Shown in pieces: positions 2,815 to 46,113 of a stretch of DNA of 55,101 nt; within the stretch, counting starts at the first letter, position 1; each line of letters starts with the position of its first letter. Source of the DNA: a virus (Duplodnaviria > Caudoviricetes); IMG/VR virus record IMGVR_UViG_3300023109_000032, positions 1 to 55,101 of that record. The stretch is one strand, 5' to 3'. The notes below the pieces were generated by a model, which worked only from the letters and a program-made list of their open reading frames with translations, searched no databases and had not been told where the DNA came from. Made by a program: the position numbers and the translations under genes.

Positions 2815-3873
2815 ATGGAACATATTAAAGACTATAAATTATTTAAAGAGTCTCTAGACACTGAACTACTTACCGAGAAATACAGTTCAGATATATTAAG
2901 ACAGTTTGCTGCACAAGACGGCGGTTCAAGATGGAGAGGCGGAATTGCAAAAGATATGCAAAAATTTGCTAATCTTGCTTTAGATAAAATTTCAGATGCT
3001 GATTTTACTACAACTACACCAGAAGCTTATTGGAAAGGTGGAGATGCTAAGAATCCAAATAAAGTAGGATTCTTTGTTGATGCAGATCCAGGATTTATTA
3101 AATGGGCAAAGGCAAACAAGAAATACATGCCAAGCGGATTATCATTAGGTAACATTTCTAAGTATGGAGTAGTACTTTCTGTTATTAGAGGAGGAATTGG
3201 AATGTATCATGGTTTTGCAATGGACAGAGGATCTTCATACAGCAGACATAGAAAAGGAACTGAAGAAAGATATGGAATTCTTGCAAAAGATTATGAAACT
3301 AATTCTTTATATAATGGATGGGAAGGCAGACCTGCAGCTAAAGTAACAAGAAAGAATCTTATCGATGCTGCAACTCGTGTTTATGTTTTAGACTTAGATA
3401 GTTTAAGAGACAAGTATGATGTAAGTGGATTAAAACAAGATCGTGCAAATTCTAAAGCTGGTGCAACTGCACTAAAAACTGCTAAAGACATCAAAAAAGA
3501 AAATCAAGCAAGGTATGATGCTATCTTAACTGATAGAGCTGCAATGACTGACATTGATAAGGCAGTTAAAGATTCGATTGAATTATTAAATCAACATATA
3601 TCCGATGCATTAAAAGATGGTAATATGGATCAATACGGAAACTTTATTATCGGTAAAAGTCCTAGAGGTAGAGATGTAAAAATTGAAGATGGTGCAAATG
3701 CTATCAGAAATATGTTAAATGATTACCAAAGATATAAGGATTACGAAAGACAAAATAAAGAAGCGGCAGCTGATGGTAGAGAAGATAACTATTATGCAAG
3801 AGAAGTAAAAAACTATGCTAAAAGACTTCAAGACTATTCTAAAAATGTAAAGGATAAAAATTACGGTTGGTAA
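2815..3873 (+). CDS. putative internal head protein with cleavable leader
   Basis: Leader MEHIKDYKLFKESLDTELLTE resembles T4 capsid-targeting sequences; late-like promoter upstream. Confidence 0.55.
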   Translation: MEHIKDYKLFKESLDTELLTEKYSSDILRQFAAQDGGSRWRGGIAKDMQKFANLALDKISDADFTTTTPEAYWKGGDAKNPNKVGFFVDADPGFIKWAKANKKYMPSGLSLGNISKYGVVLSVIRGGIGMYHGFAMDRGSSYSRHRKGTEERYGILAKDYETNSLYNGWEGRPAAKVTRKNLIDAATRVYVLDLDSLRDKYDVSGLKQDRANSKAGATALKTAKDIKKENQARYDAILTDRAAMTDIDKAVKDSIELLNQHISDALKDGNMDQYGNFIIGKSPRGRDVKIEDGANAIRNMLNDYQRYKDYERQNKEAAADGREDNYYAREVKNYAKRLQDYSKNVKDKNYGW

Positions 3874-3874
3874 T

Positions 3875-4738
3875 ATGAAACATATAAATGAATACTCTGA
3901 ATTTAAAAAATCATTAATCACCGAAAAATTAGCACGAGGGTTAAAGCCACTATTAAAGATAGGTTCAACTATTAATAAAAAGGCTGGTGAAGATGCATTA
4001 CTGGATTTATCTGATAAGTTTGATAGTATAGATGATGAATATGCTGGAACTATAGCAAGTCATTTAGACATGGCTATTGAACTAATGCAAGATGGTTATG
4101 CAGGAGATGCTACTAAAAAATTAAAGCAATTTAATAAAGCATGCAAAGATGTTCTTAATGGAAAAGAAGTTGGTTCAGCTTTTGAAAACGTTAATGAAGC
4201 AACATATAATTCAAAAAATCATATCGGATCTACTTCTGACGGACAAGGTTCTAATGCTGAGATTTATAAAAAAGGAAAAGGATACTATGTAGTTGTCAGT
4301 GGAGAAGCTGATTATGATTTTGATGCAAAGAATGACAAAGAGTTATTGAAAAAGTTAAAAGATAACGAATTTGATTCTACTGATATATTAGAAGTTAATG
4401 AAGCTACTGATATGAATGATCCAGTCTTAATGGCATTTAGAGCAACTCGAAGAGAATTACCTAAATTTAAACCAGCTAAAGCAAAATCACGTAGGTTAAG
4501 CTTTGATAAGTATATGGATTTATTAGATGATCAAAGGTATATAGAACAAGAACTTAGAGATTTAACTGAAGAAATGGCTCAAACACTTAGAGACATGGAA
4601 CAGGAGGCTGAACCGGAAGGTGGCAAGATTGCTGATAAGTATGGTTCTATTATGATGAAGCAAGAAAAAGAATATGCTAAGTTAAAAGCTAAGAAAGAAA
4701 AGATTGATGCTAGGCTTGACAAACATAGAATGGATTAA
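3875..4738 (+). CDS. putative multi-module internal head protein
   Basis: Leader MKHINEYSEFKKSLITE; two internal VNE|A linkers. Confidence 0.55.
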   Translation: MKHINEYSEFKKSLITEKLARGLKPLLKIGSTINKKAGEDALLDLSDKFDSIDDEYAGTIASHLDMAIELMQDGYAGDATKKLKQFNKACKDVLNGKEVGSAFENVNEATYNSKNHIGSTSDGQGSNAEIYKKGKGYYVVVSGEADYDFDAKNDKELLKKLKDNEFDSTDILEVNEATDMNDPVLMAFRATRRELPKFKPAKAKSRRLSFDKYMDLLDDQRYIEQELRDLTEEMAQTLRDMEQEAEPEGGKIADKYGSIMMKQEKEYAKLKAKKEKIDARLDKHRMD

Positions 4739-5541
4739 TGGAATTTATTAAAAAATATACAGAATTTTTATTAGAAAAGAAAAAGGAGAAAGAATCCTTT
4801 GAAGATAAAATTGAAGGTGATGGATATTATAAAGGTATATCTACAGCAACTGCTCGAGATAAGGTAGATCAAATGGCAAAACAATCTAAGATGTCTGATG
4901 ATGATCCAGATGCTTATAAAGAAATGCCTGGTGATACTAAAGGTAAAAAACTTTTAAAGAAATCTAAACATACAAAGGCATTTGATGATTTATATGCAGA
5001 TGAAGCTTTAGAAGAAATGGTTACTAATGAAGGTGTAATGAGCGAATTACATATAATGATGGAAGAAGCTAAAAACTTTGCTGATTTTAAGAAAAGATTT
5101 TATAAAGAATTTAGCGATAAAGTTAAACCTAACAAAGATTTAGATAGTTGGTTAAAAGATCTTTACTCTGAAGGCCTAGGAGAATCATTAGATGAAAAAG
5201 CTGGCGGAGATCGTGGTCCTATAAAAGGAAAGGGAATTGAAACTGGCCTTAAAAAGAAAGCAGATCAAACTGGAGTATCATTACCTTTATTAAGATTAGT
5301 AATGAGAAGAGGTATGGCTGCATGGAAAAGTGGACATAGACCTGGTGCTGGTCAAGAACAATGGGGTTATGCTAGAGTTAATTCATTTTTAACTAAAGCT
5401 CCAGGTACTTGGGGTAGACCGTTAGATGATCCTAAAAAGAATGGACCTAAAGGAAAATTTGGAGCTGATGCTGATATTGCTAAAGAAGTAATTAAAAAAG
5501 GCGAAGATAAGAAATTAAAAACAACAGGTTTACCTAAGTAA
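4738..5541 (+). CDS. putative internal head protein; C-terminal RRGMAAW..GHRPGA..QWGYARVNSF domain
   Basis: Leader MEFIKKYTEFLLE; TNE|G and ESLDE|K linkers; C-terminal motif recalled from other large DNA viruses (DUF5824-like, unverified). Confidence 0.55.
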   Translation: MEFIKKYTEFLLEKKKEKESFEDKIEGDGYYKGISTATARDKVDQMAKQSKMSDDDPDAYKEMPGDTKGKKLLKKSKHTKAFDDLYADEALEEMVTNEGVMSELHIMMEEAKNFADFKKRFYKEFSDKVKPNKDLDSWLKDLYSEGLGESLDEKAGGDRGPIKGKGIETGLKKKADQTGVSLPLLRLVMRRGMAAWKSGHRPGAGQEQWGYARVNSFLTKAPGTWGRPLDDPKKNGPKGKFGADADIAKEVIKKGEDKKLKTTGLPK

Positions 5542-6086
5542 TGAAATTTATAAAAGGCTTTACTGATTTTAAAAATGTATCTGAAGAACTTAAGTATCAT
5601 GTAGATAATGGTATAGGTTTAGATGATAGTGTTTTTCGTTTAGGATCTGATGCTCATAGTAAATTATTTGAAGAGGCTAAACAATATTGGGATAAAGGAA
5701 ATCTAGTATTAAAAGGTAAAAGCGGATTTATGGCTAAGAACCTTGAAGTAGGTAAGCAAGCAATTTATAAAGATCGTAAATCTGGAAGAACAAAAGATGT
5801 TAAATTAGATTCACCAGAAAGAGGCGGTAATAGAAAGTTTATTGTTTATCGTAATAGCGGAAGAACTGATAAAGAAACAGGAAAGATTGTTGCAAAAAAG
5901 ATTGAATGGGGAGATCCTAAATTGTCTGTAAAGAATGATGATCCAGGTGCAGCTGCTAGTTTTTGGGCAAGACACCAATGTGATCAAAAGAAAAAGATGG
6001 ATCCAAATAAAGCTGGCTTTTGGGCCTGTTATGGCCCAAGTCTATTTGGTAAGCAATTAGGATTAAAGAGTACTAATCCTTGGTAA
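5541..6086 (+). CDS. conserved phage protein (GDP...SFWARHQC...AGFWAC), putative virion protein
   Basis: Leader MKFIKGFTDFKNVSE; C-terminal motif resembles a family recalled from T4-like phages. Confidence 0.55.
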   Translation: MKFIKGFTDFKNVSEELKYHVDNGIGLDDSVFRLGSDAHSKLFEEAKQYWDKGNLVLKGKSGFMAKNLEVGKQAIYKDRKSGRTKDVKLDSPERGGNRKFIVYRNSGRTDKETGKIVAKKIEWGDPKLSVKNDDPGAAASFWARHQCDQKKKMDPNKAGFWACYGPSLFGKQLGLKSTNPW

Positions 6087-6110
6087 ATAAATAATAAAAT
6101 AAAAAAGGTA

Positions 6111-7481
6111 ATGAAAAATTTAAAAAGAATAGATGAAGCCGTAGGTTCTATCCTAGAAAGAAGAGCTTCTGCTGATAGACTTCTTAAAGATGTTGTAAAA
6201 GGAAATACATCTGAAGTAGATGGTATTAAATTATCCAAGGAAATGGCACAAGGCTTTTTAGATTGGTTACAATATTCTACTTATGGTAAAAAGTTTGGAG
6301 CTTTACCTTTTTATAAATTATTTACTGCTGCATTTAATTGGGGATTAGATAGATTTGTTAAAGGTGCTAATACTAAATTAAAAGCTGAATTTAAAGAACT
6401 TAAAGCTAAAGCTAAAGAAATGAGCAAAGCTGAAATGAAAGGTGAATCTTTAGATGAAGCTATTGATTTATTAAAATCTACATGGAGAGGAACTAAAGGA
6501 TGGAATGATGTTGCAAGAGTAATGGATGCAGGATTAATGAAAGCTATAAAGGCAGGTGGTGTACCATTAAGTTATGCTAAAGATTATGTTAAGTCATTAG
6601 AAAGAATGGCAAAAAGAAATGCTAAAAAGTTCTTTGATGAGTATGGTAATTTTAGTGAAGATGATTTTATCGAGGATATTGAATACAATATGGCTAATGA
6701 GAGTAAGGTTAATGAAGCTAAGTTTAGTTTTTCTGAAGATGAAGTAAAAAATGTTGCTGATTTAATAGCAAAGGCAATTGCAAAAGTTGATAAATCTAAA
6801 ACAGCAGTACATGATATGGAATATGATGCAGGTCGTGGAGCCGGCTTTGAAATATCAATGGACGGAGAAAGATATGAAGGTGGTAGCTATGTAGTAAGAC
6901 CTAATGGTGAAGTTTATAATGCTGCAATTGGTAATTCATTTCCTAACGCTGTATATGCAAAGATAGGTGATACTGATATTAGAAAAGTAATGAAAAATAT
7001 TAAAAAGTTTGAATCTGTTGAAGTATCTGAAAACTATGATACAGAACAAAGAAAAGAAATGGCAGCAAAAGGTTTTGCTTTAGCTGATGGAAGTTTTCCT
7101 ATTGCTAATTTAGAAGATCTCAAAAATGCTATCCAAGCTTATGGTAGAGCAAAGGATCAGGCAAAAACTGCTAAATTTATTGTAAAGAGAGCAAAAGCAT
7201 TAGGTGCTGAAGATCTTGTTCCTGATACGGATGACTTTCAGAAATCTTTAGACGAAACGAGTACTTATATTATGGAAGGTAAGGATATAGGATCATGGAA
7301 TCAAGGAGGACTTAAAGGTGATAAAAATGTTTTAATAACTACTTTTGTTGGGCCTAAGGATATTGAAGATTTTGGTCTAGGAAGAAAATGCATGCAAATA
7401 AATGTTGGTATGGATTATATTTCATTGAATCCTGCTGATATTGTAGAGTTAAAGGATATTCTTAAATCTTATAAAGTATAA
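6111..7481 (+). CDS. putative polyprotein-like internal head protein
   Basis: Leader MKNLKRIDE|A; linkers ESLDE|A, ESKVNE|A, ESVEVSE|N, KSLDE|T; one module carries DGSFPI..DLKNAIQAYGRAK. Confidence 0.55.
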   Translation: MKNLKRIDEAVGSILERRASADRLLKDVVKGNTSEVDGIKLSKEMAQGFLDWLQYSTYGKKFGALPFYKLFTAAFNWGLDRFVKGANTKLKAEFKELKAKAKEMSKAEMKGESLDEAIDLLKSTWRGTKGWNDVARVMDAGLMKAIKAGGVPLSYAKDYVKSLERMAKRNAKKFFDEYGNFSEDDFIEDIEYNMANESKVNEAKFSFSEDEVKNVADLIAKAIAKVDKSKTAVHDMEYDAGRGAGFEISMDGERYEGGSYVVRPNGEVYNAAIGNSFPNAVYAKIGDTDIRKVMKNIKKFESVEVSENYDTEQRKEMAAKGFALADGSFPIANLEDLKNAIQAYGRAKDQAKTAKFIVKRAKALGAEDLVPDTDDFQKSLDETSTYIMEGKDIGSWNQGGLKGDKNVLITTFVGPKDIEDFGLGRKCMQINVGMDYISLNPADIVELKDILKSYKV

Positions 7482-7487
7482 TAACTA

Positions 7488-7826
7488 ATGCCTTGTAAAT
7501 GTAAATCATGTGGCTGTAAAGACCTTACTGAAGAAACGGTAATTTCTCAAATAGAAGATCAAACTAAACCTTTTACACAAGAGGATTATTCTGCTGATAC
7601 TATTTTAAGACATTTTGATAAAGCCGCACCTAATCATTTATATAAATGGCATGCAGACGATGAAGATCGTTATGTAGAATCATTAAATGAAAATGATTGG
7701 AAATTTCAATTTGATAATGAATTACCACAATCAATAGAACCGGGTAAGATTATTTATATTCCTAAAGGATTAATCCATCGCTTAATTAAAGGTTCCTCTG
7801 AATTAAGTATTTCTATTAAATCTTAA
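7488..7826 (+). CDS. cupin-like phage protein
   Basis: WHADDEDR...WKFQFDNELP...IPKGLIHRLIKG cupin-type pattern. Confidence 0.55.
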   Translation: MPCKCKSCGCKDLTEETVISQIEDQTKPFTQEDYSADTILRHFDKAAPNHLYKWHADDEDRYVESLNENDWKFQFDNELPQSIEPGKIIYIPKGLIHRLIKGSSELSISIKS

Positions 7827-7926: not shown

Positions 7927-9945
7927 ATGGGAGAAATTTATCCAGAAGAAGAAGAAAAGCAAAGAAAGCCTAAATTTAAAAAACAGACTTTAGTCTTAGA
8001 TACTTATGGTACTAATTTAAGTAAAAGAGCTATCGAAGGTAAATTAGATCCAGTCATCGGAAGAACTGATGAAATCCTTAGGGTTATACAAATTCTAGGA
8101 AGACGTAGAAAAAACAATCCTGTTTTAGTTGGGGAACCCGGTGTAGGTAAAACTGCAATTGTTGAAGGGTTAGCATTAAAAATGGTAGAAGGAAATGTTC
8201 CTGTATCATTACAAGGTAAAGTTATCTATACTTTAGAATTATCAACAATCGTAGCAGGAACAAAATACCGTGGTCAATTCGAGGAAAGAATGAAAAGTAT
8301 TGTAGATGAGTTAATACTTAATCCACATATTATTGTTTTTATTGATGAATTACATACACTCGTTGGGGCAGGAGGTTCTACAGGATCCTTGGATGCGTCA
8401 AATATTATTAAGCCAGCATTAGCAAGAGGAGAAATTAGATGTATAGGTGCAACTACATTTGATGAGTTTAGAGAAAACATCGAAGACGATGGGGCTTTGG
8501 ATAGAAGGTTTCAAAAAGTTACAGTTGAACCACCAACGATGGATCAAACTATTGAAATACTTTCTAATATAAGACATAAGTATGAAGAGCACCATAATGT
8601 TTCTTATGATGATTCAATAATTGAAATTATTGTTAAATTAGCAGATCGTTATATTATGGATAGGTACTTTCCTGATAAAGCAGTAGATATATTAGATGAG
8701 GTAGGTTCTTATAAACACTTAATTAATATGAAAGTTCCTCAAAAAATCAAAGCATTAGAAGAAAAGTTAATTCAAAAAGAAAATGCTAAGAGGAAGGCTG
8801 TATCACGACAACTTTACGAAGTAGCTGCAAAAGAAAGGGATGCATGCTTAACACTCAAAGAAAGAATTAAACAAGATCTTGCGATATGGAAAGAACAAAT
8901 GGCTGTTAATCAATTAGAGATAACCGAAGATGATGTATTAAAGGTTGTATCTAAATCAACAGGTGTTCCAATTGAAAAAATATCAGATAAAGAAAATAAA
9001 AATTTATTAGGGCTTAATAAACATTTATCATCAAGAGTTATAGGACAAGATGAAGCAGTTAATAAAATTGCAGTAACAGTGCAAAGAAACCGAGTAGGTA
9101 TTAGAAAAAGAAACCGAACAATGGGTAACTTTATTTTCTTAGGACCTACTGGAGTTGGTAAAACTCAATTAGCAAAAGAATTAACAGAATATCTTTTTAA
9201 TAGTGAAGATTCATTAATTAGAGTTGATATGTCTGAATACATGGAACCTCATTCTATTTCTAAATTAATTGGAGCACCTCCTGGATATGTAGGATTTGAA
9301 GGTGGTGGATTTTTAACAGAGCAGGTAAAGAGAAAACCGCATTCTGTTGTATTATTTGACGAGATAGAAAAAGCTCATCCAGAAGTCTTTAATGTACTTC
9401 TACAAATGTTAGATGATGGGCAGTTAACCGATTCTTTAGGAAGGACTGTTGATTTTAGAAATTGTTTAATAATTCTTACTTCAAATACAGGATCTAGAAA
9501 ATTACAAGATTTTGGCCAAGGTATCGGTTTTGAAAGTTCTACTAAAATGGTTAACCAAGCTGAAGAAGAAAAAACTATTTTAAGAAAGGCTCTTAAAAAT
9601 AAATTCTCACCAGAATTTTTAAATAGAATTGATGAGATTGTAGTATTTAATAGATTAACCGAAGATAATGTAATGGATATTTTAACTAAAGAATGTAAAG
9701 AACTTGCATCTAATTTAGAAGAAGTAGGAAATTATATTTTTAAAATATCTAAAGGTGCTAAAACAATAATTCTTAATCAAGGATATGATCCTAAATATGG
9801 AGCAAGACCATTACGTAGAACAATTGAAAGAATGATTGAAAATAAGATATCTGAGCATATTCTTAAAGGAGAATTAAAAGAAGGCGGTACTATTAATATT
9901 AAAAGTACCAAAGGTGAATTAATAATTGACATAACAAATATATGA
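7927..9945 (+). CDS. clpC: ClpC-type Hsp100 AAA+ ATPase lacking the N-terminal Clp repeat domain
   Basis: Walker A GEPGVGKT and GPTGVGKT; RVDMSEY; [10 protein letters not shown]; UVR-like M-domain; GIGF ClpP-docking loop; GARPLRR. Confidence 0.92.
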
Positions 9946-10313
9946 GAATAGCTTTAGTAGCTCATGATGGAAAGAAAGCAGATATGGTTGCTTTTGTTAT
10001 GAAAAGATTAGATTTTTTTAAAAGAAAAGATGTAGAGTTAGTAGCAACAGGAACAACAGGAGGTATGATTGAAAATGCCGGCTTAAAGGTTCAATGCTTA
10101 AACAGCGGACCTTTAGGTGGAGATGCAGAAATTGGCGCAATGGTTACTCGTGGTGAAATGGATGCAGTTATATTTTTTAGAGATCCATTAGACAAACATC
10201 CTCACGATGTTGATATTGCAATGTTAATGAGGCTATGTGATGTTCATAGAATACCTTTAGCTACAAATTATGCATCAGCACATATAATAATTAAATACTT
10301 TAAAAGCAAATGA
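9942..10313 (+). CDS. mgsA: methylglyoxal synthase
   Basis: IALVAHDGKK, ATGTTG, SGPLGGD, FFRDPL..HPHDVD, PLATN. Confidence 0.95.
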   Translation: MRIALVAHDGKKADMVAFVMKRLDFFKRKDVELVATGTTGGMIENAGLKVQCLNSGPLGGDAEIGAMVTRGEMDAVIFFRDPLDKHPHDVDIAMLMRLCDVHRIPLATNYASAHIIIKYFKSK

Positions 10314-10978
10314 ATTACGGAAAAGAATTTCAAAAATATGCAATGAGTGATCATAATGTTAGTTCATCTAAACTAAATTATTATGAAAAGCAAATTGAAA
10401 ACTCAATGACTCCTTATATTTTAGAGGAGAGAGAAATGAGAGCAACACAGATTGATATATTCTCAAGGTTAATGATGGATAGATTACTTTGGGTTGCAGG
10501 ACCAGTTAATGATGGAATGTCAACAATTGTTCAGGCTCAATTAATGTTCTTAGATAGTGTAGAGAAAAAAGATATTACAATGCATATTGATTCCCCGGGA
10601 GGTTCGGTTAAATCAGGACTCTCTATGGTAGATGTTATGGATTATATCAAATCAGATATAAGAACAGTTAATACTGGAATGGCTGCATCTATGGGATCTG
10701 TTTTACTTGGTGCAGGGACAAAAGGAAAAAGAAGTTCACTAAAACATTCAACAACAATGTTGCATCAATCATCAGGTGGTTTTAGTGGAAACATACAAGA
10801 TGCTGAAATAGATTGGACTGAATGGAAAAAAGTTAATAAAGAACTTTTTGTTCTGTTAGGAAAATACTGTGGCAAAAAACCAGAAAAAGTAGCAAAGGAT
10901 GCAACAAGAGATTTCTGGATGAATTCTGAGGAGGCTCTTAAGTATGGAATAATAGATGAAATTATAGGAGTAAAATAA
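10310..10978 (+). CDS. clpP: Clp protease proteolytic subunit
   Basis: DIFSRLMMDR, IDSPGGSV, GMAASMGS (catalytic Ser), MLHQ, RDFWM. Confidence 0.96.
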   Translation: MNYGKEFQKYAMSDHNVSSSKLNYYEKQIENSMTPYILEEREMRATQIDIFSRLMMDRLLWVAGPVNDGMSTIVQAQLMFLDSVEKKDITMHIDSPGGSVKSGLSMVDVMDYIKSDIRTVNTGMAASMGSVLLGAGTKGKRSSLKHSTTMLHQSSGGFSGNIQDAEIDWTEWKKVNKELFVLLGKYCGKKPEKVAKDATRDFWMNSEEALKYGIIDEIIGVK

Positions 10979-11429: not shown

Positions 11430-11639
11430 ATGGGATCTATGAAGAAATTTATTAAATTTTTCTTAATTTGGTATAGTCAACAGATGGCCATACCCTTTTG
11501 GGTTATCGGTCATGTGCATTTACATTTTGCTACTTATCATGACTTATATGAATATAGTTTATCGATTTTTTTACACCTAATGGTAGCTATAGGTTTTTGG
11601 ATAGATTGGAAACAGAACGGAAAAAACATTAATAAATGA
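11430..11639 (+). CDS. small membrane protein
   Basis: Two hydrophobic segments. Confidence 0.55.
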   Translation: MGSMKKFIKFFLIWYSQQMAIPFWVIGHVHLHFATYHDLYEYSLSIFLHLMVAIGFWIDWKQNGKNINK

Positions 11640-12712
11640 GATTACATATATTAGGAATTGCAAGAAATGCTTCTACTCCAACACTTACGATGGACCCTTA
11701 TGCAATGATTAGTTATTATACAGCAACATATCTGCATAGAGCAGGCCATGAGGTACATTATTATGGTTATAAAGAATCAACAGTAGAATGTACAAAAAAA
11801 TGGGAATGTGGTAATAAAGAGTTTTTAGAAAAATATTACATTACTAAAGGTTTTGAAAAAACACATTGGAAAAATTCAGATGAAGGCTGCGAAATTTTTT
11901 TTAATAAAGCAAAAGATCATTTATTAAAAAATTATAAAGATGGTGATATTATTATATGTAATTGGAGCCCTTCGGTTGATATTTTAAGAAGATCATTTCC
12001 ACATGCTAAAATAGTAGATGGTAATATTAATCACCGTTCACCTTCACCAGCAACTAACTATCATGTACATTCTTCCATAGCTAACCAACATTTTTTATAC
12101 GGTGCAGCTGCTGAAAGAAAAGGTGATTATGATACTGAAGATCATTGGCAAGATACTGTGATATATCCTATGGCTAATGAATTAAATAACTTTATTTATA
12201 AGAAAGATAAAAAAGATTACTTTTTCTTTATGGGTAGGTTAGGTCTTAATAAAGGTATTCATATTCTTAGAGATCTTGCTGCTCATTTTCCAGATAAAAA
12301 ATTTATTATTGCTGGTCAAGGTTCAATGATTATAGATCTTTTACCTAATATGGAATTTGTAGGGTGTTTAAATGGAGAGGAGAAAAAAGAATATCTTTCA
12401 GATGCTAAAGCAATAATATCTCCATCCACTTATAGCGAACCGTTTGGGCTAACACCAGTAGAGGCAGGATTATCAGGTACTCCTACTATTTGTACTGATT
12501 GGGGTGGGTACACTGAAAATGTATTAGACGGCGTTACTGGTTTTAGATGTACTTATTTTAATGATTTTGTAAATGCTATTAACAATATAGAAACTCTTAA
12601 ACCAGAAGATTGTAGAAAATTTAGTGAAAGGTTTGCGGCAGAAACTTTAATAAAGGATTGGGAAAAATATTTAAATAAAATTAATAGAGTAGGCTGGTAT
12701 GATATTGACTAA
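11636..12712 (+). CDS. GT-B glycosyltransferase (GT4-like)
   Basis: FMGRL..NKG, EPFGLTPVEAGLSGTP, GVTGF. Confidence 0.88.
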   Translation: MRLHILGIARNASTPTLTMDPYAMISYYTATYLHRAGHEVHYYGYKESTVECTKKWECGNKEFLEKYYITKGFEKTHWKNSDEGCEIFFNKAKDHLLKNYKDGDIIICNWSPSVDILRRSFPHAKIVDGNINHRSPSPATNYHVHSSIANQHFLYGAAAERKGDYDTEDHWQDTVIYPMANELNNFIYKKDKKDYFFFMGRLGLNKGIHILRDLAAHFPDKKFIIAGQGSMIIDLLPNMEFVGCLNGEEKKEYLSDAKAIISPSTYSEPFGLTPVEAGLSGTPTICTDWGGYTENVLDGVTGFRCTYFNDFVNAINNIETLKPEDCRKFSERFAAETLIKDWEKYLNKINRVGWYDID

Positions 12713-14726: not shown

Positions 14727-15452
14727 ATGGAACATAAAATATTTGAAGTCGGTGGTTGTGTAAGGGACGAAATCTTAGGAGTTCATACAAAAGACATCGA
14801 CTTTACTTTTGTATTAGATAATACTGATATGACAGTAGAAGAAGGGTGGAACAAAATGTTATCTATCCTTGAATCTGAAGGATTCAAAATATTCTTAAAA
14901 ACACCAGACTGTTTTACTGTAAGAGCTATGTTTCCTAAAGGGCATGAGCATGAAGGTTTAGTTGCCGACTTTGTTATGTCTAGGAAAGAAGTAGGAGTTA
15001 TACCTGGAACAAGAAAACCTATATTAGAATTAGGAACTTTAGAGGATGACTTAATGAGAAGGGATTTTACTCTTAATGCCTTATGTAAAGATGAGAATGG
15101 TAATATCATAGATATGTTTAATGGTGTTATAGATTTAAATAATAGAATCCTTAGAACTCCATTACCTCCAATGAAAACTTTAATGGATGATCCTTTAAGA
15201 ATGATAAGAGGTTTAAGATTTTCCATAACCAAAGGTTTTACATTTGATGATGAATTATGGGAATGTATGCAAGAGCCAGGTTTGTTAAGAAAATTAGAAG
15301 ATGTAGTTTCTCAAGAAAGAATCAGAGAAGAAGTTACTAAAATGTTTAAGCATGATACTCTTAAGAGTTTAAATCTTTTAAGAACTATACCTGGATTAAT
15401 GGAAGTTATATTAAAAGATGGGATGTGGTTAATGCCAACAACTAAAAAATAA
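14727..15452 (+). CDS. tRNA nucleotidyltransferase (CCA-adding/poly(A) polymerase family)
   Basis: VGGCVRD, KDIDF, RRDFTLNAL, DDPLRMIRGLRF, SQERIREE. Confidence 0.9.
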   Translation: MEHKIFEVGGCVRDEILGVHTKDIDFTFVLDNTDMTVEEGWNKMLSILESEGFKIFLKTPDCFTVRAMFPKGHEHEGLVADFVMSRKEVGVIPGTRKPILELGTLEDDLMRRDFTLNALCKDENGNIIDMFNGVIDLNNRILRTPLPPMKTLMDDPLRMIRGLRFSITKGFTFDDELWECMQEPGLLRKLEDVVSQERIREEVTKMFKHDTLKSLNLLRTIPGLMEVILKDGMWLMPTTKK

Positions 15453-16654: not shown

Positions 16655-17539
16655 ATGAAATATATTAAAATTTTAGATTTAAACGAAAGTTTAGATGAAA
16701 AAGTAAACGAAGCAGTAAATGCATCAGGCTATATTAAAGCTGGTAAATTAGGTTACAATGATCAATTTTTAGGAAGAAGATCTTTATCATGGACATTATC
16801 AACTGATTTAGGTTTAAAGGCAGCTGATGAATTCGTTGGTCCGTGGTTAGGATTTGATCATGTATCAATGTATGCTATTGGTAAAAAAGGAGGTACTATT
16901 TTAGATGATGCATTAACCAACAAATACACTTATGAAGAACTCAAATCTGCTGCTGCAAAGTATTTAGGGATTAAAGAATCAGCTGATTTAAATGAAGCTA
17001 AATTTGTAAGTTCATATGATACAAAAGTAAATGATGCCGAAACAGAAAAAGACGTTTTAAAAATATACCCAAAGGCTAAATTCTTTACAGGTAAATTAAC
17101 TCACTTCTTTGGAGAACTTGAACCAAATCTTTTCTTTAAAGCTTATTATCCTAAATATTATAAGGAAGATACTGGTAAAACTGTTAAAGGTGATTTTAAA
17201 ATTACTTCAGTCTATTCTGAAAAAGGTAGAAAATATGTTGAGTTAATGAAAGAATCATTAAATGAAGCAAAGAAATTTAAACCAGGTGATAAATGGTCAA
17301 ATGATTTTGATTATGATGGAATGATGAAGTATGCTTTAACGGTGAATCATAAAACTCCACTAAAAACTCTTCAGAAATTACATGATTCTGCAACTGATGT
17401 AAATTACCATACTCCTTTTTCAGGTTTAGGTAATGCAATTGATTGGATAACTGATGATGGTGTTAATTCACAAGAAGGTAAAGACTTTATGAAACAATTT
17501 CATAATGATATTAAATCTGAAATAAAGAAAATGGCATAA
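16655..17539 (+). CDS. putative polyprotein-like internal head protein
   Basis: Leader MKYIKILDLNESLDEKVNE|A; ESADLNE|A; ESLNE|A. Confidence 0.55.
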   Translation: MKYIKILDLNESLDEKVNEAVNASGYIKAGKLGYNDQFLGRRSLSWTLSTDLGLKAADEFVGPWLGFDHVSMYAIGKKGGTILDDALTNKYTYEELKSAAAKYLGIKESADLNEAKFVSSYDTKVNDAETEKDVLKIYPKAKFFTGKLTHFFGELEPNLFFKAYYPKYYKEDTGKTVKGDFKITSVYSEKGRKYVELMKESLNEAKKFKPGDKWSNDFDYDGMMKYALTVNHKTPLKTLQKLHDSATDVNYHTPFSGLGNAIDWITDDGVNSQEGKDFMKQFHNDIKSEIKKMA

Positions 17540-19017
17540 TGAAATATATTAAATTATTTGAAAAGTTCACTAAGGACTATATGAAAAAAATAGACCTTAG
17601 TGATTTTAAGAAAATCAAAAAAGGTTCTAAGATTTTATACATGGGTGGCCAAGTGGAAGTTTTAGATAATAATGGATATGTTCTTAAACTTAAAGGAGAA
17701 GACGGTAGAACCTTTACTATTAATAAATCTCAATTTGATCACGGAGGAATGATTAAAGAAGTATCTGATGGAAAGAAAAAGAAAAAGAAAAAGGAATTCC
17801 ATCCAGATATGATGTATGAGGCTAAAGGCAAAAAGGTTATAAATGATCTTTATAAAATGGATGCTCAAATTGATTATCTTTCTGATGCTGATGATGCAAC
17901 TAAAAAGATATGGAAAAAGGCAGGAGTTAATCCTAATGATGATAATCAAATTATTCTTTACTCATATGTTAATTCATGGCCTGAAACTAAAAAACTTTTA
18001 GACAAATCAAGAATTAAGTATAAAGAATTAGAAGATCCTAATTCTGCAGGTGAATCTTTTATTGTATTTGATGTTAATGAATCAATTAATGAATTAAGAA
18101 CATCACCAGTATCTGGAACAATGGCTGGTTTTACTACATCGTTAGAAGATAGAAAATATGAATTAAAGAAAGATGTTAAAGGCGCTACTATTGGAAACTT
18201 TTCAAATGTAACACTTCCTAAAGGAACTATTATTTATAATTTACCTGGTGGGGTATTTGCAGATCATTTTGCATTAAAACAAAGGTATACGAGTAGATCA
18301 TCACAAGGTCCACAATATTTTGATAAACCAACCTTTAAAGGTATAATGATTAAACAAACACCTGCTGTCTTATCATACATTGAAAAGAACAGTAAAGTTT
18401 TAGAATCATTTGATACAGAAGACGAAGTAATCAATTTTATAGATGGAATAGTTAACGAAGCTAGTGATCAACAAAGATTAACTCATTTAAGAAAATTTGG
18501 AATTGCACCTAATAACCAACCACAGAATGGTGCTTATATAAAACAAGTAGCAAAACCTGGAAAATTCTTCGTGGATTGGAAAGATGCTTTTGATCTAGGT
18601 GATGTTGCATTAGAGTTTGTAAAATCTGTAGGTAGTATTTCTGAGTTTGATATTATTGATCTTAAGACAATGAAACGCACAGGTAAGCAATTAGATGTTA
18701 AGAAAGGTCAATTAGGAAATTTAAGAACTACTTATGGTGTTAGAGTTAATGAATCTCTTAATGAATTATCATCTGCACAAGATGGTACTAAAGATTCTGA
18801 TGGTAAACATAGACATGAACATCATTTAGAAGAAGATATAGAAGCAATGTGGAAAAAAGCCTATGGTGAGAATTTTAGTTCTCAATATCCAGCAGTTGCT
18901 AAAATTATTAAACAAAGAAAGATTAAAGATAAAAGAGAAATTGCTAGAATATGGCAAGATACTTATGGTGAGGATTTTGAAAAAGAATACCCAGCATTAT
19001 TCCAAAAGTTAAGTTAA
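17539..19017 (+). CDS. putative polyprotein-like internal head protein
   Basis: Leader MKYIKLFE; VNESINE|L; IVNE|A; VNESLNE|L. Confidence 0.55.
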   Translation: MKYIKLFEKFTKDYMKKIDLSDFKKIKKGSKILYMGGQVEVLDNNGYVLKLKGEDGRTFTINKSQFDHGGMIKEVSDGKKKKKKKEFHPDMMYEAKGKKVINDLYKMDAQIDYLSDADDATKKIWKKAGVNPNDDNQIILYSYVNSWPETKKLLDKSRIKYKELEDPNSAGESFIVFDVNESINELRTSPVSGTMAGFTTSLEDRKYELKKDVKGATIGNFSNVTLPKGTIIYNLPGGVFADHFALKQRYTSRSSQGPQYFDKPTFKGIMIKQTPAVLSYIEKNSKVLESFDTEDEVINFIDGIVNEASDQQRLTHLRKFGIAPNNQPQNGAYIKQVAKPGKFFVDWKDAFDLGDVALEFVKSVGSISEFDIIDLKTMKRTGKQLDVKKGQLGNLRTTYGVRVNESLNELSSAQDGTKDSDGKHRHEHHLEEDIEAMWKKAYGENFSSQYPAVAKIIKQRKIKDKREIARIWQDTYGEDFEKEYPALFQKLS

Positions 19018-19069
19018 TGGCACCATATTTAATTTTTGCTATTATCTTATGCATATTAATAGATACAAT

Positions 19070-19396
19070 ATGAAATACATTAAACCACTTAACGAAGGAA
19101 GACCTATGTTCCAAGATACTCCTAATGAGTTTGCTTATTTAGATTTTGCAAAGTGGGCATCAAAAAACAAAGGCGATATTAAAAAAGAACTATCCAATAT
19201 TAATGATGGTACTACATTCTTTATAGCACTTAGAAAACTGTGGATGCGTTGGGCTATGAAATATGCAAAGAATTGGAGTTACTTACATTCTACTGCTGTT
19301 GCTAAAAAAGATTTTGGTAGAGCCTTAGCTGTTATGTTAAAGAAAGATAATTTAATAATTAGAAATCAAGGTAATAAATTAACAGATTTAAAATAA
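19070..19396 (+). CDS. putative internal head protein
   Basis: Start moved to 19070, giving the leader MKYIKPLNE|G seen in neighbours. Confidence 0.55.
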   Translation: MKYIKPLNEGRPMFQDTPNEFAYLDFAKWASKNKGDIKKELSNINDGTTFFIALRKLWMRWAMKYAKNWSYLHSTAVAKKDFGRALAVMLKKDNLIIRNQGNKLTDLK

Positions 19397-19966
19397 ATGA
19401 ATAACATCCCAACATTTAATGAATTTAAAAACCGAAGATTAGTAAATGAAACTTATGATCTTTTAGAAGGGAGTGTAAGTTATGAAGATCTTAATGATGT
19501 TTTAAATGAAGGAATCTTTTCTTTTATTAAGGGTATATTTATGAACCCTTTTCAAAAAAGAAAGTTAAAAAAGTTAGGGGATGAATTATTTAAAATAAAG
19601 GTTCAGATTCAAAAACTAGAAATAGAAGAAAATGATATTGATAGAATGGAGGATGAATTAAAATCAAAAGATTCTAATTATAGTTCGGATTCTTCTATAA
19701 AGAATGCAAAAACCGCCGAAGATAAAAAATTAAAAGCTTTACAGAATAAAGAAGCGATTATAATTGATCAAATGGATACTGTTGCTGGAGATAATCAAAC
19801 TCTAACTAAGTATGTAAATAAGATAAAGCTAGAAATTAGAATGAAGGCAAATGATGCAACTATAAAAATGGCTGATGCCGAAATGAGTAGAATCTTAAAT
19901 AAGATGCAAAAGAAGGATGCTAAAGAAATTAAAGTACTGGATAAAGAATTGGCTAAGGCGGCCTAA
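19397..19966 (+). CDS. putative internal head protein, coiled-coil
   Basis: MNNIPTFNEF..LVNE|T..LLE|G..LNE|G. Confidence 0.55.
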   Translation: MNNIPTFNEFKNRRLVNETYDLLEGSVSYEDLNDVLNEGIFSFIKGIFMNPFQKRKLKKLGDELFKIKVQIQKLEIEENDIDRMEDELKSKDSNYSSDSSIKNAKTAEDKKLKALQNKEAIIIDQMDTVAGDNQTLTKYVNKIKLEIRMKANDATIKMADAEMSRILNKMQKKDAKEIKVLDKELAKAA

Positions 19967-23201: not shown

Positions 23202-23939
23202 ATGAGGAGTATACTATTAACATTACTGTTATTACTAACAGCAAGCGCTCAGTCTCAGGTCGTATTTAACGTACCTGAGATTGATGTGCCTGTAAGTGAG
23301 TACATTAACTTGCCTGTAGAAATTGAAACTTCAGGCGAAGATGTTGGTAGTCTAGAATTTGCATTGAACTATAATACTGATTTTTTAGAATTTGTATCAA
23401 TAAGTGTTACAGCTAAAGCACAAGAATGGTTAACCTATACTATGGACTGGGAAGGGGAAACTGTTAGGTGGGGTGGTTATGACGCATCTTTTGGTACCTA
23501 TACGATAAGTAACACTACTGAACTATTCACTTTAAGATTTAGAGTCATTAGTCAAGATTGGGATACTATACCTATTACGATTGGTAGAAAAACAGCAGGT
23601 ACAGAATTAGGCTGGGATATTGAAGTTGAAAATACTGATGGGTATGTTAATAAAAGAATGGCATCATTTGACACCAGACCAATGGATGGAATTTATGGGT
23701 TGGTTTATCCAATCCCAACACGAGGTTTGTTAACTTTTGATCTAACTGTACCAGATAATGGTGATTATGAAATCAGAGTAATAAATTATAATGGAGTAGT
23801 ATACAAAAGACTTAAGAAAAGATTCTTTAGTGGATATGTTTCATTCCAAACAGATTTATCTGATTTAGCACAAGGAATTTATTTGTTGCAAGTAACAAAC
23901 GGTGTGTATGTAAAAACATTCAAAATAATAAAGAAATAA
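23202..23939 (+). CDS. secreted cohesin-domain protein with type A T9SS C-terminal sorting domain
   Basis: Signal AQS|Q; LPVEIE..VGSLEFALNYNTDFLEFVS; YPIPTRG...DLSDLAQGIYLLQV...KTFKIIKK. Confidence 0.8.
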   Translation: MRSILLTLLLLLTASAQSQVVFNVPEIDVPVSEYINLPVEIETSGEDVGSLEFALNYNTDFLEFVSISVTAKAQEWLTYTMDWEGETVRWGGYDASFGTYTISNTTELFTLRFRVISQDWDTIPITIGRKTAGTELGWDIEVENTDGYVNKRMASFDTRPMDGIYGLVYPIPTRGLLTFDLTVPDNGDYEIRVINYNGVVYKRLKKRFFSGYVSFQTDLSDLAQGIYLLQVTNGVYVKTFKIIKK

Positions 23940-26790: not shown

Positions 26791-27240
26791 ATGAATAATA
26801 CAAAAGGTAAGATAGGATTTACTGCAGGTAATTTTGATATAATACATCCTGGTTATATTTACACATTTGAAACTGCTAAACAGCATTGTGATTATTTTAT
26901 GGTATTTTTACATGCAGACCCTTCATTACACAGAAAAAGTAAATATACTCCAGTGATACCTTTACATGAAAGGTATAAGACTTTAATGTCATTAGAGTAT
27001 GTTGATGAAGTTGTTACTTATGAAAGCGAAGAAGATCTTTTAAAGTTAATAGAATTTTTTAAACCTGATCTTAGAATACTTGGAGATGATTATATAGGAA
27101 AAAGATTTACAGGAGATCATCTGCCAATAGAAGTTATGTATACAACAAGAAGTCATGGATGGTCAACAACTAAATTAAAGAACTTAATAACTCGAATGAC
27201 TATGAAACAAAACCCTGATTTTTTAAAAAATAAGAAATGA
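26791..27240 (+). CDS. cytidylyltransferase-family nucleotidyltransferase (TagD/RfaE-like)
   Basis: GFTAGNFDIIHPGY (HxGH variant), VDEVVTY, LGDDY, RSHGWSTT. Confidence 0.85.
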   Translation: MNNTKGKIGFTAGNFDIIHPGYIYTFETAKQHCDYFMVFLHADPSLHRKSKYTPVIPLHERYKTLMSLEYVDEVVTYESEEDLLKLIEFFKPDLRILGDDYIGKRFTGDHLPIEVMYTTRSHGWSTTKLKNLITRMTMKQNPDFLKNKK

Positions 27241-28181
27241 GAATAATTGTAACAGGAGGTTTTGGTTTTATAGGATCTGAATTTGTTAATCTTATTGCTA
27301 GAGAAAACCCAAAGGCTCAGATTGTAGTTGTAGATAAAATGACATATGCTGCAAACCCAAAGAATGTTAAAACTGGAATAGCTCTAATTAAAAAAGATAT
27401 ATGTGATGTGACACCCCACGACTTAGGAGAATATGATTACATAGTACATTTTGCAGCAGAGAGCCATGTAGATAATTCTATAACAAATGGCAAACCTTTT
27501 ATCAGAACAAATGTTGAAGGAACATTTAATCTTTTAGAATGCGCAAAACAAAATAAAACTTTAAAGAAATTTATTCACATTTCAACTGATGAAGTTTATG
27601 GCGATATGGATGATCCTAAATACCACTCAATTTTAGGCATTAAGAAAAGAGCAGACGAAAATGATTCTTTAGAAGGTTCTTCATATTACTCTGCAACTAA
27701 AGCTTCATCAGACTTATTAGTTTTGGCTGCTAATAGAACTTTTGGATTACCTTACATAATTACTAGAACTTGTAATAATTATGGATCACATCAACATAAA
27801 GAAAAGTTTTTACCAACTATCTTAAGATCCATTAAAGAAGGTAAAGAAATACCAGTTTATGGTGATGGTAAAAATGTTAGAGAATGGATTGATGTTAGAG
27901 ATAATGTACGACAATTATATAGTTTAATGTTATCAGATTTAACAAATGAAATATTTAATATAGGAACTGGAGAAACTTATACTAATTTAGATATTATAGG
28001 AATGATCGGAATCATTATGAAAAAACCTGTAAAATTCAAATTTGTAAAAGATAGGCTAGGCCATGACAGAAGGTATGAATTAAACTCTAATAAATTAAAT
28101 CAGTGTGCAGATCATTGGATTGATGGTAAATACAGAACATTAACTAACTTCTTGGAAGAAGAAATTAAAAAATTAAAATAA
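27237..28181 (+). CDS. rmlB: dTDP-glucose 4,6-dehydratase
   Basis: VTGGFGFIGS, FAAESHVDNSI, ISTDEVYG, YSATKA, NNYG, RLGHDRRY. Confidence 0.95.
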   Translation: MRIIVTGGFGFIGSEFVNLIARENPKAQIVVVDKMTYAANPKNVKTGIALIKKDICDVTPHDLGEYDYIVHFAAESHVDNSITNGKPFIRTNVEGTFNLLECAKQNKTLKKFIHISTDEVYGDMDDPKYHSILGIKKRADENDSLEGSSYYSATKASSDLLVLAANRTFGLPYIITRTCNNYGSHQHKEKFLPTILRSIKEGKEIPVYGDGKNVREWIDVRDNVRQLYSLMLSDLTNEIFNIGTGETYTNLDIIGMIGIIMKKPVKFKFVKDRLGHDRRYELNSNKLNQCADHWIDGKYRTLTNFLEEEIKKLK

Positions 28182-45231: not shown

Positions 45232-45657
45232 TTACATTCCTATGTCTTTATGAAGAACTTTCATAAAACCTTTATAAGTATGTTGGCCATACTCATCTCT
45301 TAATATTTGACCAACAGCCAGTGCAAAATCTTCATATGACATGGAGTCATCTATTTTAATCATTGCTTTATCCATTGCTTTTGCTAAAGCTTCAGACTTC
45401 TTAGATTCAAATATATTAAATTTAGACACGTGATTTTCATTTTGAGTTTTTTCATCTTCATGACCTTCTTTCCAATGAGGACTTATAACACCAGGATCTC
45501 TAGTTGGATGAACATCAAATCCTTGTCTTACTGGGCTATCATACGCGTTAGTATCTTTTCCTCCGGCTAAATCATCAAACATATCTTTAAATTGTTTGAT
45601 AGTTCCTTTATAATGTCTAATTGCATTTTCATCTTTATCTTCTTGTGGTGTTTCCAT
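45232..45657 (-). CDS. hypothetical protein (putative head-associated)
   Basis: Internal HVSKFNIFE|S leader-like motif. Confidence 0.6.
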   Translation of the reverse strand: METPQEDKDENAIRHYKGTIKQFKDMFDDLAGGKDTNAYDSPVRQGFDVHPTRDPGVISPHWKEGHEDEKTQNENHVSKFNIFESKKSEALAKAMDKAMIKIDDSMSYEDFALAVGQILRDEYGQHTYKGFMKVLHKDIGM

Positions 45658-46112
45658 TACTTTCCGTATTTTTGCTTAAGCTGATGTATCTTAGTTTGAT
45701 ATCCTAATTTTTTTATATCTATTTTGTCTATTGCAATTCTCAGTTGATAATATTCTACACCAAAAGGATCTTCTCTATCTTGTGCAGCTCTGAACCTTTC
45801 AATATTTTGTTGTTCTCTTCTCTTTAATCTTTCAGCAGTTGAATTTGGATTAAATTCATGTTTCTCAGCTTCAACAATTCCATCTTTACCATCCATAGTA
45901 TCATGTACTGAATTTAGATTTTTAACTGAGTCTGAAATTTTAGAATACATCCAAGCATCTAATTGTTGACCCTGTGACATTCTATCTTTAATCATATCAG
46001 CATAATCACCAATTCTTTCTAAGTCAGTTGATGCCATGCTATTAAGATTGTCAATAGTTTTATCATTTTCATTAAAGGATTCAAATCCTGGTATTAAATC
46101 TATACTTGCCAT
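45657..46112 (-). CDS. putative internal head protein
   Basis: Leader LIPGFESFNE|N; LDAWMYSKIS motif. Confidence 0.55.
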   Translation of the reverse strand: MASIDLIPGFESFNENDKTIDNLNSMASTDLERIGDYADMIKDRMSQGQQLDAWMYSKISDSVKNLNSVHDTMDGKDGIVEAEKHEFNPNSTAERLKRREQQNIERFRAAQDREDPFGVEYYQLRIAIDKIDIKKLGYQTKIHQLKQKYGK

Positions 46113-46113
46113 A

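Follow-up and report, generated by a model that had tools for sequence, protein, structure and literature searches.

The stretch analysed here, hereafter the window, is the whole of IMG/VR virus record IMGVR_UViG_3300023109_000032 (55,101 bases with no N, and 19% complete according to CheckV), and our subject is a cluster of five consecutive open reading frames (ORFs O1–O5) at 2815–7481 on the plus strand. An initial annotation had described these as starting with a shared type of leader, with linkers dividing three of them into modules, and both descriptions held: the five quoted N-termini are present as given, and all of the linkers were found in O2, O3 and O5, where they bound modules of 55–114 amino acids (aa). 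The cluster is therefore real, but the coordinates given to it covered only part of what we found, as the same grammar of leaders and joints is also seen at 16655–19966 (+) and, in a weaker form, at 45232–46581 (–). The leaders, modules and linkers (referred to here as joints) are listed below, with an arrow marking the predicted cut.

O1, 2815–3873, + strand: 352 aa; leader MEHIKDYKLFKESLDTELLTE↓K
O1 leader (aa 1–21), 2815–2877, + strand: ends LLTE↓K and is followed by one 331-aa basic module (pI 9.4)
O2, 3875–4738, + strand: 287 aa; leader MKHINEYSEFKKSLITE↓K (aa 1–17, nt 3875–3925) ending LITE↓K; modules 2a (aa 18–108, 91 aa), 2b (109–176, 68 aa) and 2c (177–287, 111 aa)
O2 joint, 4181–4198, + strand: FENVNE↓A, predicted cut after E108
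O2 joint, 4385–4402, + strand: ILEVNE↓A, predicted cut after E176
O3, 4738–5541, + strand: 267 aa; leader MEFIKKYTEFLLE↓K (aa 1–13, nt 4738–4776) ending FLLE↓K; modules 3a (aa 14–98, 85 aa), 3b (99–153, 55 aa) and 3c (154–267, 114 aa, which holds DUF5824)
O3 joint between 3a and 3b, 5014–5031, + strand: EMVTNE↓G, with Thr at P3
O3 joint, 5179–5196, + strand: GESLDE↓K, predicted cut after E153, immediately 5' of the DUF5824 module
O4, 5541–6086, + strand: 181 aa; leader MKFIKGFTDFKNVSE↓E (aa 1–15, nt 5541–5585) ending NVSE↓E; the mature part is one 166-aa basic module (pI 9.7)
O5, 6111–7481, + strand: 456 aa; short leader MKNLKRIDE↓AVGSILE↓R (aa 1–9 or 1–16); modules 5A (aa 17–116, 100 aa), 5B (117–202, 86 aa), 5C (203–307, 105 aa), 5D (308–382, 75 aa) and 5E (383–456, 74 aa)
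O5 joint, 6441–6458, + strand: GESLDE↓A, predicted cut after E116, in a segment (108–130) with a low predicted local distance difference test score (pLDDT); relatives carry other modules downstream
O5 joint, 6699–6716, + strand: ESKVNE↓A, predicted cut after E202, in low-pLDDT segment 196–203
O5 joint, 7014–7031, + strand: SVEVSE↓N, predicted cut after E307, in low-pLDDT segment 302–309
O5 joint, 7239–7256, + strand: QKSLDE↓T, predicted cut after E382; the related protein L003_5 has an extra stretch inserted there

Every leader in the cluster ends hydrophobic-x-Glu (LTE↓K, ITE↓K, LLE↓K, VSE↓E and IDE↓A). O1–O4 fit one loose leader pattern which we set ourselves, and O5 has a shorter variant lacking the aromatic core. 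This loose pattern was found in nine of the 133 window ORFs of at least 50 aa, which are O1–O4, candidates at 17539, 19397 and 46581 (–), and two evident false matches. O1 and O4 each consist of a leader plus a single module and are not polyproteins. LLTE21 is the sole [VLIM]xE site in the 352 residues of O1 (3.0 expected), and the O1 family is stable with nearly all of its 82 database matches being 349–355 aa long, in contrast to O2, O3 and O5.

Recurrence of the joints and rearrangement of the modules

The joints of O2, O3 and O5 are of an ES(V/L)(N/D)E↓A type, with Val, Leu or Ile at P3 and mostly Asn, Asp or Thr at P2, and the three VNE↓A joints have GTTAATGAAGC in common at the DNA level. 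A search for the O5 family gave 938 matches at E ≤ 1e-5 among 8,000 candidates scored, of which 120 listed ones were taken (318–706 aa, covering 20–100% of the query), and 120 of 717 matches were taken for a fused O2/O3 form, making a set of 240 database relatives. When each 4-mer in this set was scored by how many different flanking contexts it had, those ranked highest were ESVV (59 contexts, with 0.8 expected), VNEA (55), VTEA (50), SVNE (44), NEAK (40), ESVN (38) and VVTE (36), all of which are pieces of E-S-V-(V)-N/T-E↓A-K, and the longest of the listed relatives (1,008–1,039 aa) are repeatedly punctuated by the joint peptide. The joint is a real recurrent element, beyond what chance would produce. 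The module interiors of the cluster hold seven [VLIM]xE sites compared with 15.3 expected (seven or fewer were seen in 9 of 1000 shuffles), which we take as supporting evidence only because the interiors were themselves defined partly from the motif; 44 other ORFs in the window hold 186 such sites, with 166 expected.

Five related viral contigs (L002–L006) were recovered with O5 as the query, and the gene order around the cluster is common to them. We cut the window O2, O3 and O5 proteins into modules and compared these by BLAST with 30 cluster proteins from six loci, and found six different architectures in which modules are fused, split, inserted, dropped and permuted. L003 has 2a and 2b joined with other modules and with 3b and 3c in a single 600-aa protein (an O2/O3 fusion, L003_2), in which the counterpart of the O2 E108 joint (E216) lies in a low-pLDDT segment, the counterpart of the O2 E176 joint (E284) has a different module downstream, and the counterpart of the joint between 3a and 3b is AESVDE↓S. 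O5 is split in both L003 and L005, with the downstream 5D being an ORF with its own leader in each case (accompanied by 5E in L003). The L004 version of 2c is preceded by different modules than in the window, and O5 in the same contig has inserted modules and an internal leader remnant, ESVLE↓NFKTFGEFVSE↓K, ahead of 5D, while in L005 the whole of O3 is fused behind new modules with its leader kept inside as NE↓KNFIKKYTEFLLE↓K. Module order is also changed, as 5C-G in L004 is G-5C in L005, and 5A-5B is 5B-5A in L006. Module G is part of O5 in L003, L004 and L005 but is found in the window in another gene (16655–17539) belonging to the second locus, and this indicates that modules move between loci.

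The edges of these modules coincide with the sites. Among 41 module instances in L002–L006, 32 left and 36 right edges are no more than 2 aa from a [VLIM]xE site (right edges at the C-terminus were counted as being at a site), compared with 11.2% for a random position. For rearranged edges, where the neighbour is unlike that in the window, this was true of 29 of 38 against the same random value, and the check proposed in the initial annotation, that modules might be shuffled among related phages with junctions at the linkers, therefore gave a positive result. BLAST alignment ends, which involve no preset modules, were also found no more than 3 aa from a site in 24 of 71 cases across the six loci (8.5 ± 2.7 expected, and reached in none of 5000 shuffles), and in a set of 150 proteins 153 of 518 ends were at sites (63.4 ± 7.5 expected, with a maximum of 91 in 2000 shuffles). 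The breakpoint signal is strong but not exclusive, as many alignment ends are away from the joints.

We produced AlphaFold2 models of O5 (68-row alignment, mean pLDDT 63.5) and of L003_2 (105-row alignment, mean pLDDT 65.2). The O5 model has confident blocks at residues 20–107, 131–195, 204–301 and 329–381, and segments with pLDDT <50 which include 1–19, 108–130, 196–203, 302–309 and 382–443. Seven of the eight [VLIM]xE sites in O5 lie in such segments, which hold 30% of its residues, as do 11 of the 13 sites in L003_2, where they hold 24.5%. The sites flank confidently folded domains in these models, one of them alpha/beta. Linkers buried within folded domains, which would have spoken against the initial annotation, were not what we found, with 18 of 21 sites in the two models located in low-pLDDT linkers making up ~27% of the residues.

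Leaders and head proteins of the T4 type

The likeness to the leader of the T4 internal proteins suggested in the initial annotation is close for O1–O4 and their relatives, which resemble MKTYQEFIAE, and O5 has the shorter variant. In the T4 record which we translated, IPII and IPIII start MKTYQEFIAE↓A and IPI starts MKTFKEFTSTTTPVSTITE↓A, with the cuts placed at the established T4 positions, and T4 gp21 cleaves according to the rule L/I-x-E. T4 propeptides of 10–20 residues are described as capsid-targeting sequences that are removed by gp21 (PMC5694885). T4-like leaders in the relatives include MKNFRTYGEFITE↓A (L003), MEHFKTYGEFITE↓G (L005) and MKNFKTYGQFIAE↓A (3 of the 120 listed O5-family matches), as well as MKYFKTHSEFLNE↓A and MQHIPDYRQFVNE↓G.

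A link to a prohead protease had also been proposed, and this stands in so far as a gp21-family protease is encoded by a syntenic relative, G001 (the contig of L003, 181,663 bases and 65% complete, with orthologs 77–97% identical to those of the window), though not by the window fragment itself; the search for this protease was made in two of the five related records and gave a match in one, G001. The G001 head module consists of a portal gene (phrog_213), a 573-aa protease–scaffold fusion (PF03420 Peptidase_S77, E 6e-16; phrog_207, E 2.3e-40) and a Gp23-family capsid protein (PF07068, E 2e-17), together with sheath and tube genes, and the gene directly 3' of the capsid gene carries the leader MAKLKTYSEFLNE↓G. 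All studied proteases of the gp21-related family are reported to cut after Glu (PMC5694885). The N-terminus of the G001 capsid protein has five [VLIM]xE sites in 56 aa compared with 1.3 expected (five were reached in 5 of 2000 shuffles), including LINE↓A, VIE↓E, ITE↓K and LNE↓S, and the scaffold part of the fusion has 26 in 408 aa compared with 12.1 ± 2.9, including EESINE↓S, LESINE↓S and LLNE↓S. The counterparts of both are cut in T4. The spacing of sites is ~16 aa in the G001 scaffold as against 55–114 aa in the cluster, which is located ~50 kb from the head genes in G001.

There are 46 plus-strand copies of TATATAAA in G001, and it is found 9–44 nt upstream of 22 plus-strand ORFs, among them those for the portal, protease–scaffold, sheath, tube, tail fibre, O5a, O5b and several leader-bearing ORFs; in the window it is found 17 nt upstream of 46581 (–). 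We take this as a weak hint that TATATAAA is possibly a late promoter of this lineage, unlike the T4 late-promoter word TATAAATA, which was found 15 times in the window compared with 14.9 expected and never before the cluster. A sigma-70 and terminator scan was uninformative on the timing of expression.

Proposed head-cargo polyproteins and rival explanations

The cluster genes are best explained as encoding head cargo in an uncultured marine jumbo myovirus whose head module is of the T4 type, and we consider it reasonably probable that their products are packaged in the head as polyproteins, cut into ~13 internal proteins, retained there and then enter the host with the DNA. The leader of 9–21 residues, as the counterpart of the T4 capsid-targeting sequence, would take the precursor into the prohead core, where a gp21-family (Peptidase_S77) protease would cut after Glu at hydrophobic-x-Glu, taking the leader off and severing the ES(V/L)(N/D)E↓A-type joints. 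In this way one leader would load several unrelated small proteins, with the five ORFs giving ~13 products of 6.5–37 kDa, and as these would be too large to exit the shell they would be retained in the head as internal proteins alongside the DNA, with which they would most likely enter the host. Because the products would work separately, module order and gene boundaries would be free to vary. It is also at the joints that modules are swapped, inserted, lost or rearranged between related phages. Injection might be followed by an effector or anti-defence role, though this would be proposed only by analogy with T4, in which Ip1–3 are all reported to inhibit GmrSD enzymes (PMC12373910).

It is also possible, although we would lean towards doubting it, that the ES-V-x-E joint acts as a double punctuation, being a head-protease site in the protein and an in-frame recombination joint (11–18 conserved bases) in the DNA. 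Were this so, any module would be movable between any cargo genes, within or between phages, and one leader would load a reshuffled library of hundreds of module families in chains of more than 1,000 aa. Such loci would then be to marine giant phages what the anti-restriction Ip hot spot is to T-even phages, with delivery of multiple proteins in a fixed ratio.

A number of observations weigh against packaging and cutting as the explanation of the cluster. [VLIM]xE is a low-information motif, the T-N-E joint between 3a and 3b falls outside it, the module edges were set partly by it so that the interior depletion is not fully independent, and the low pLDDT at the joints may partly stem from alignment breaks. 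Nine of the 38 rearranged edges are off-site (mostly at the variable start of 5B, with one T-N-E joint and one C-terminus), and the mature part of the G001 capsid protein shows no shortage of sites (5 compared with 3.3 expected). The O5 leader has no aromatic core, and a strict T4-type pattern was found in 36 of the 120 listed O2/O3-family matches and in only 5 of the 120 listed O5-family matches, a further 97 of which have the short MKNLKRIDE↓A-type leader. The evidence for a head protease and capsid comes from a relative, as no gene for either was found in the 55-kb window fragment (19% complete), and TATATAAA is absent before the window O1 and O5 and is also 5' of SbcC-like, topoisomerase II and Hsp20 genes in G001. 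It should also be noted that the O4 and DUF5824 domains are found without leaders elsewhere, including in podophages and an archaeal virus, and so do not need T4-type packaging, and that Pfam, PHROGs, PDB and fold searches found no effector or anti-defence family among the modules. Finally, targeting, cutting and retention are steps that we infer, and for cutting and packaging this counts against our explanation.

An alternative is that these are uncleaved multi-domain proteins in which ES-V-x-E is a conserved flexible linker, perhaps also a DNA-level recombination joint, and in which the shared N-termini serve some other purpose, such as starting translation or being recognised by the ClpB/C-like ATPase and ClpP of the phage. 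Linker-based domain shuffling is common in multi-domain proteins, cutting at the joints is our inference, and GTTAATGAAGC is common to three VNE↓A joints in the DNA, and a ClpB/C-like AAA+ gene (7927–9945) and clpP (10310–10978) are located 3' of the cluster in the window, L003 and L004, with the AAA+ gene also following the cluster in L005 and L006. We nonetheless regard this as unlikely, as the joint motif is also found at the end of the leaders, themselves a match to the T4 leader that is cleaved, and is enriched in the scaffold and capsid propeptide of a relative. Module order is also permuted and genes are split exactly at joints with a new leader, which fits parts that work separately, and internal leader remnants persist with sites on both flanks.

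If the proteins are indeed cut, the pieces might serve assembly as prohead core or scaffold accessory proteins, like T4 gp22, gp67 and gp68, and be expelled or remain inert rather than being delivered as effectors. The leader and site grammar is as in T4 core proteins, which are described as gp21 substrates too (PMC5694885), no recognisable effector domain is present, and O1 and O4 are stable conserved genes. Set against this, the cluster sites are 55–114 aa apart and flank confident domains, compared with ~16 aa in the G001 scaffold, the extreme mosaicism of O2, O3 and O5 is unlike that of assembly parts and like that of T-even internal-protein loci, and the cluster is ~50 kb from the head genes in G001, and on balance a purely structural role seems to us quite improbable. 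That these are ordinary hypothetical proteins, whose similar N-termini and Glu-ending motifs reflect chance or shared ancestry without function, is scarcely credible. The motif is short and the genome AT-rich, with Lys, Glu and Asn common, but linker 4-mers were found in 50–59 distinct contexts where less than one was expected, the coincidence of breakpoints with sites was reached in none of 5000 shuffles, and 18 of 21 sites are confined to ~27% of residues.

If the cluster does encode head-packaged polyproteins, then abundant marine giant phages would bear far larger, combinatorial sets of head-delivered proteins than the three of T4, which were recently reported to be specific inhibitors of host restriction enzymes, and the grammar of leader and joint would make it possible to tell from uncultured genomes which proteins are packaged and act early. 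Hundreds of small domains would become candidates for first-minute host takeover or counter-defence, the fluid gene boundaries and domain order at these loci would be explained, and the arrangement would serve as a naturally occurring scheme in which a single tag loads several proteins into a capsid.

Comparison with known systems, module homologs and neighbouring genes

The T4 leader and its use in finding Ip genes, the hypervariable Ip loci, the multi-site processing of phiKZ-like phages and the concept of polyvalent proteins are already known. T4 IPI, IPII and IPIII (and Alt) have a similar short leader ending hydrophobic-x-Glu, a gp21-family protease is encoded in the present lineage by G001, and in both cases the mature parts are dissimilar to one another and the loci hypervariable. 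At least 10 T-even Ips are known from the leader, which is all that the T4 Ips are said to have in common (PMC12373910). The predicted products are also similar in size to T4 IPI and IPII (95 and 100 aa before processing). However, T4 has one protein per leader, compared with several unrelated modules per leader here, in chains of up to ~1,000 aa and with a free order; here P2 is usually Asn, Asp or Thr, this marine jumbo phage lineage is distant from T4, and Pfam and PHROGs scans found no homology between the T4 IP mature regions and O1–O5, nor any T4 internal-protein family among the latter.

Polyvalent proteins, as described by Iyer et al. 2017 (PMC5512222), are similarly mosaic with many unrelated domains per polypeptide, and are predicted there to enter a new host with the DNA and to have their domains freed by proteolysis, with the authors likening them to viral polyproteins. 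They differ in that their effector domains can be recognised and that they usually contain a zincin-like peptidase, or anchors such as MuF, within the chain (PMC5512222), whereas the modules here are small, belong to no known family and have no embedded peptidase (no peptidase or MuF family was found in the cluster proteins using Pfam and PHROGs); here a T4-type leader would load the chain and a prohead protease would cut it in trans at one fixed joint peptide. The ejection or inner-body proteins of phiKZ, 201phi2-1 and SPN3US are also processed by a gp21-related protease which cuts after Glu, in some cases at multiple sites, and the phiKZ-like giant phages have paralogs with conserved N-termini, like the cluster leaders (PMC5694885). 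Their motif is given as A-x-E or S/A/G-x-E (PMC5694885), compared with Val, Leu or Ile at P3 here, and the cuts are mainly within long discarded propeptides, with the parts of PMC5694885 that we draw on describing no cassette strings of exchangeable modules. T4 gp22, gp67 and gp68 are cut by the same protease, and the same ES-I-N-E↓S words are found in the G001 scaffold, but scaffold and core proteins have dense sites giving small peptides which leave the head, and in the cluster the sites are sparse and between folded domains. Chains of exchangeable modules behind one T4-type leader with prohead-protease joints were not found in the full-text literature, in which few subscription journals were covered; in the literature which does pair 'polyprotein' with 'capsid targeting sequence', the former is an unrelated foot-and-mouth virus antigen.

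The sole nucleotide match in a blastn search of 50,697 phage records was to 168 bases of Pelagibacter phage HTVC008M, which belongs to another family of T4-like phages (Kyanoviridae). The C-terminal half of its gp130 ('cytidyltransferase', phrog_3041; 4419–6610 in L001) is like 3a and 3c, and next in line, as in the cluster, comes a homolog of O4, gp131. VNE↓E, INE↓N, VDE↓E and IDE↓T are found at the module borders of gp130, with EIDE↓T at the place equivalent to the O3 E153 joint, but gp130 starts MKTLKELL, with just a faint likeness to a leader, and has a nucleotidyltransferase domain at its N-terminal end, and gp131 has no leader. Among cultured phages HTVC008M alone was found to combine homologous modules with joint-like sites, and we note that gp130 and gp131 offer a cultured-phage handle for experiments. 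No cultured phage with the cluster was found by tblastn and blastn, and tblastn with O5 reached cultured phages solely through a 5D-like module.

Few of the modules have recognisable homologs. Module 3c of O3 matches DUF5824 in Pfam (PF19141, E 2.2e-14), and for the cluster proteins and their relatives as a whole Pfam and PHROGs found only DUF5824/phrog_3041 plus sub-threshold matches. One of the latter is 5D, which is similar to lambda Ea8.5 (a weak Lambda_ea8_5 match, below cut-off) and short segments resembling it were detected in 23 phage records, in some cases at places annotated as portal or capsid-maturation protease. Gordonia phage DalanDe has a 5D-like module as the C-terminus of a 1,634-aa 'capsid maturation protease' encoded next to the capsid gene, which connects this one module with heads in unrelated phages. 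A leaderless form of the O4 core domain is present in immuto, pT24, Melnitz, HTVC008M gp131, two podophages and an archaeal spindle virus. PDB sequence searches with 5D, 3c, O4 and O1 gave nothing meaningful, the sole match at E <0.01 being an AI-designed TIM barrel, and Foldseek found no PDB match to the O5 model at E ≤ 0.001 and only uncharacterised viral proteins in BFVD for the L003_2 model, one of them named as DUF5824-containing. The ESM Atlas gave no usable match for O1 and only unnamed viral clusters for O4. A 452-aa protein in L006 (8205–9563) has the leader MKFIPNYGDFKNSLNE↓A and a P-loop NTPase-like part behind a QESVNE↓G joint (AAA_16, E 5e-5, below the Pfam cut-off), and is a candidate enzyme cargo. 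L005 alone has a leaderless 342-aa Gly/Ser/Thr-rich ORF (8958–9986) between O4 and O5.

The two further loci in the window are made up as follows, and the first of them shows that 2815–7481 covers only one of at least two such loci.

Second locus, 16655–19966, + strand: four ORFs with leader and joint grammar as in the cluster
Second locus, ORF 1: 294 aa, MKYIKILDLNE↓SLDE↓KVNE↓A; carries module G
Second locus, ORF 2: 492 aa, MKYIKLFE↓KF
Second locus, ORF 3: 115 aa, internal MKYIKPLNE↓G
Second locus, ORF 4: 189 aa, MNNIPTFNEFKNRRLVNE↓T
Third, weaker candidate locus, 45232–46581, – strand: three minus-strand ORFs amid a plus-strand region
ORF in the third locus, 46114–46581, – strand: starts MSKIPE↓FDKFNE, with KHINE↓A and GEVNE↓A inside; its neighbour starts MASIDLIPGFESFNE

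The window has a GC content of ~31% with almost every gene on the plus strand, and Pfam matches include KpsF, KdsB, a ClpB/C-like double AAA+ protein, ClpP, UvdE and thymidylate synthase, together with a RecA-like protein, DnaJ, an ATP-dependent ligase, dCMP deaminase, glycosyltransferases and a protein with cohesin and type IX secretion sorting domains. The G001 capsid protein is nearest to those of uncultured huge phages (50.6% identity to LR756500), and next nearest to those of Lak, Tenacibaculum, Chryseobacterium, Flavobacterium and Sphingomonas phages. A Bacteroidota host is hinted at by the sorting-domain protein (23202–23939, +; 245 aa), in which a cohesin domain is combined with a C-terminal sorting domain for type IX secretion (Por_Secre_tail), and two homologs carry the label 'Flavobacteriales'. 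From the capsid neighbours, the sorting-domain protein and these labels, the host of the window phage may lie among the marine Flavobacteriia.

Directly 3' of the cluster at 7927–10978 (+) are genes for the ClpB/C-like double AAA+ protein (672 aa), an MGS-like protein (123 aa) and ClpP (222 aa), and these may be linked to the cargo proteins, for instance by unfolding or removing precursors that escape packaging. A conserved 112-aa protein (7488–7826, +) closes the cluster in the window and in L003–L006; its N-terminus is rich in Cys (MPCKCKSCGCK), and its C-terminus gave a weak, below-cut-off Pfam match of the JmjC/cupin type (E 0.0024). Further away, a CCA-enzyme-like ORF (14727–15452) is without a leader. 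The phage seems to carry surface-sugar biosynthesis genes, with a KpsF-like arabinose-5-phosphate isomerase, KdsB (Kdo pathway), a glycosyltransferase, a cytidylyltransferase-like protein and an NAD-dependent epimerase at 18–1372, 11636–12712 and 26791–28181 (+). A large ORF at 52655–55099 (+) which runs past the end of the window (at least 815 aa) has terminal collagen-like repeats and is probably a fibre protein.

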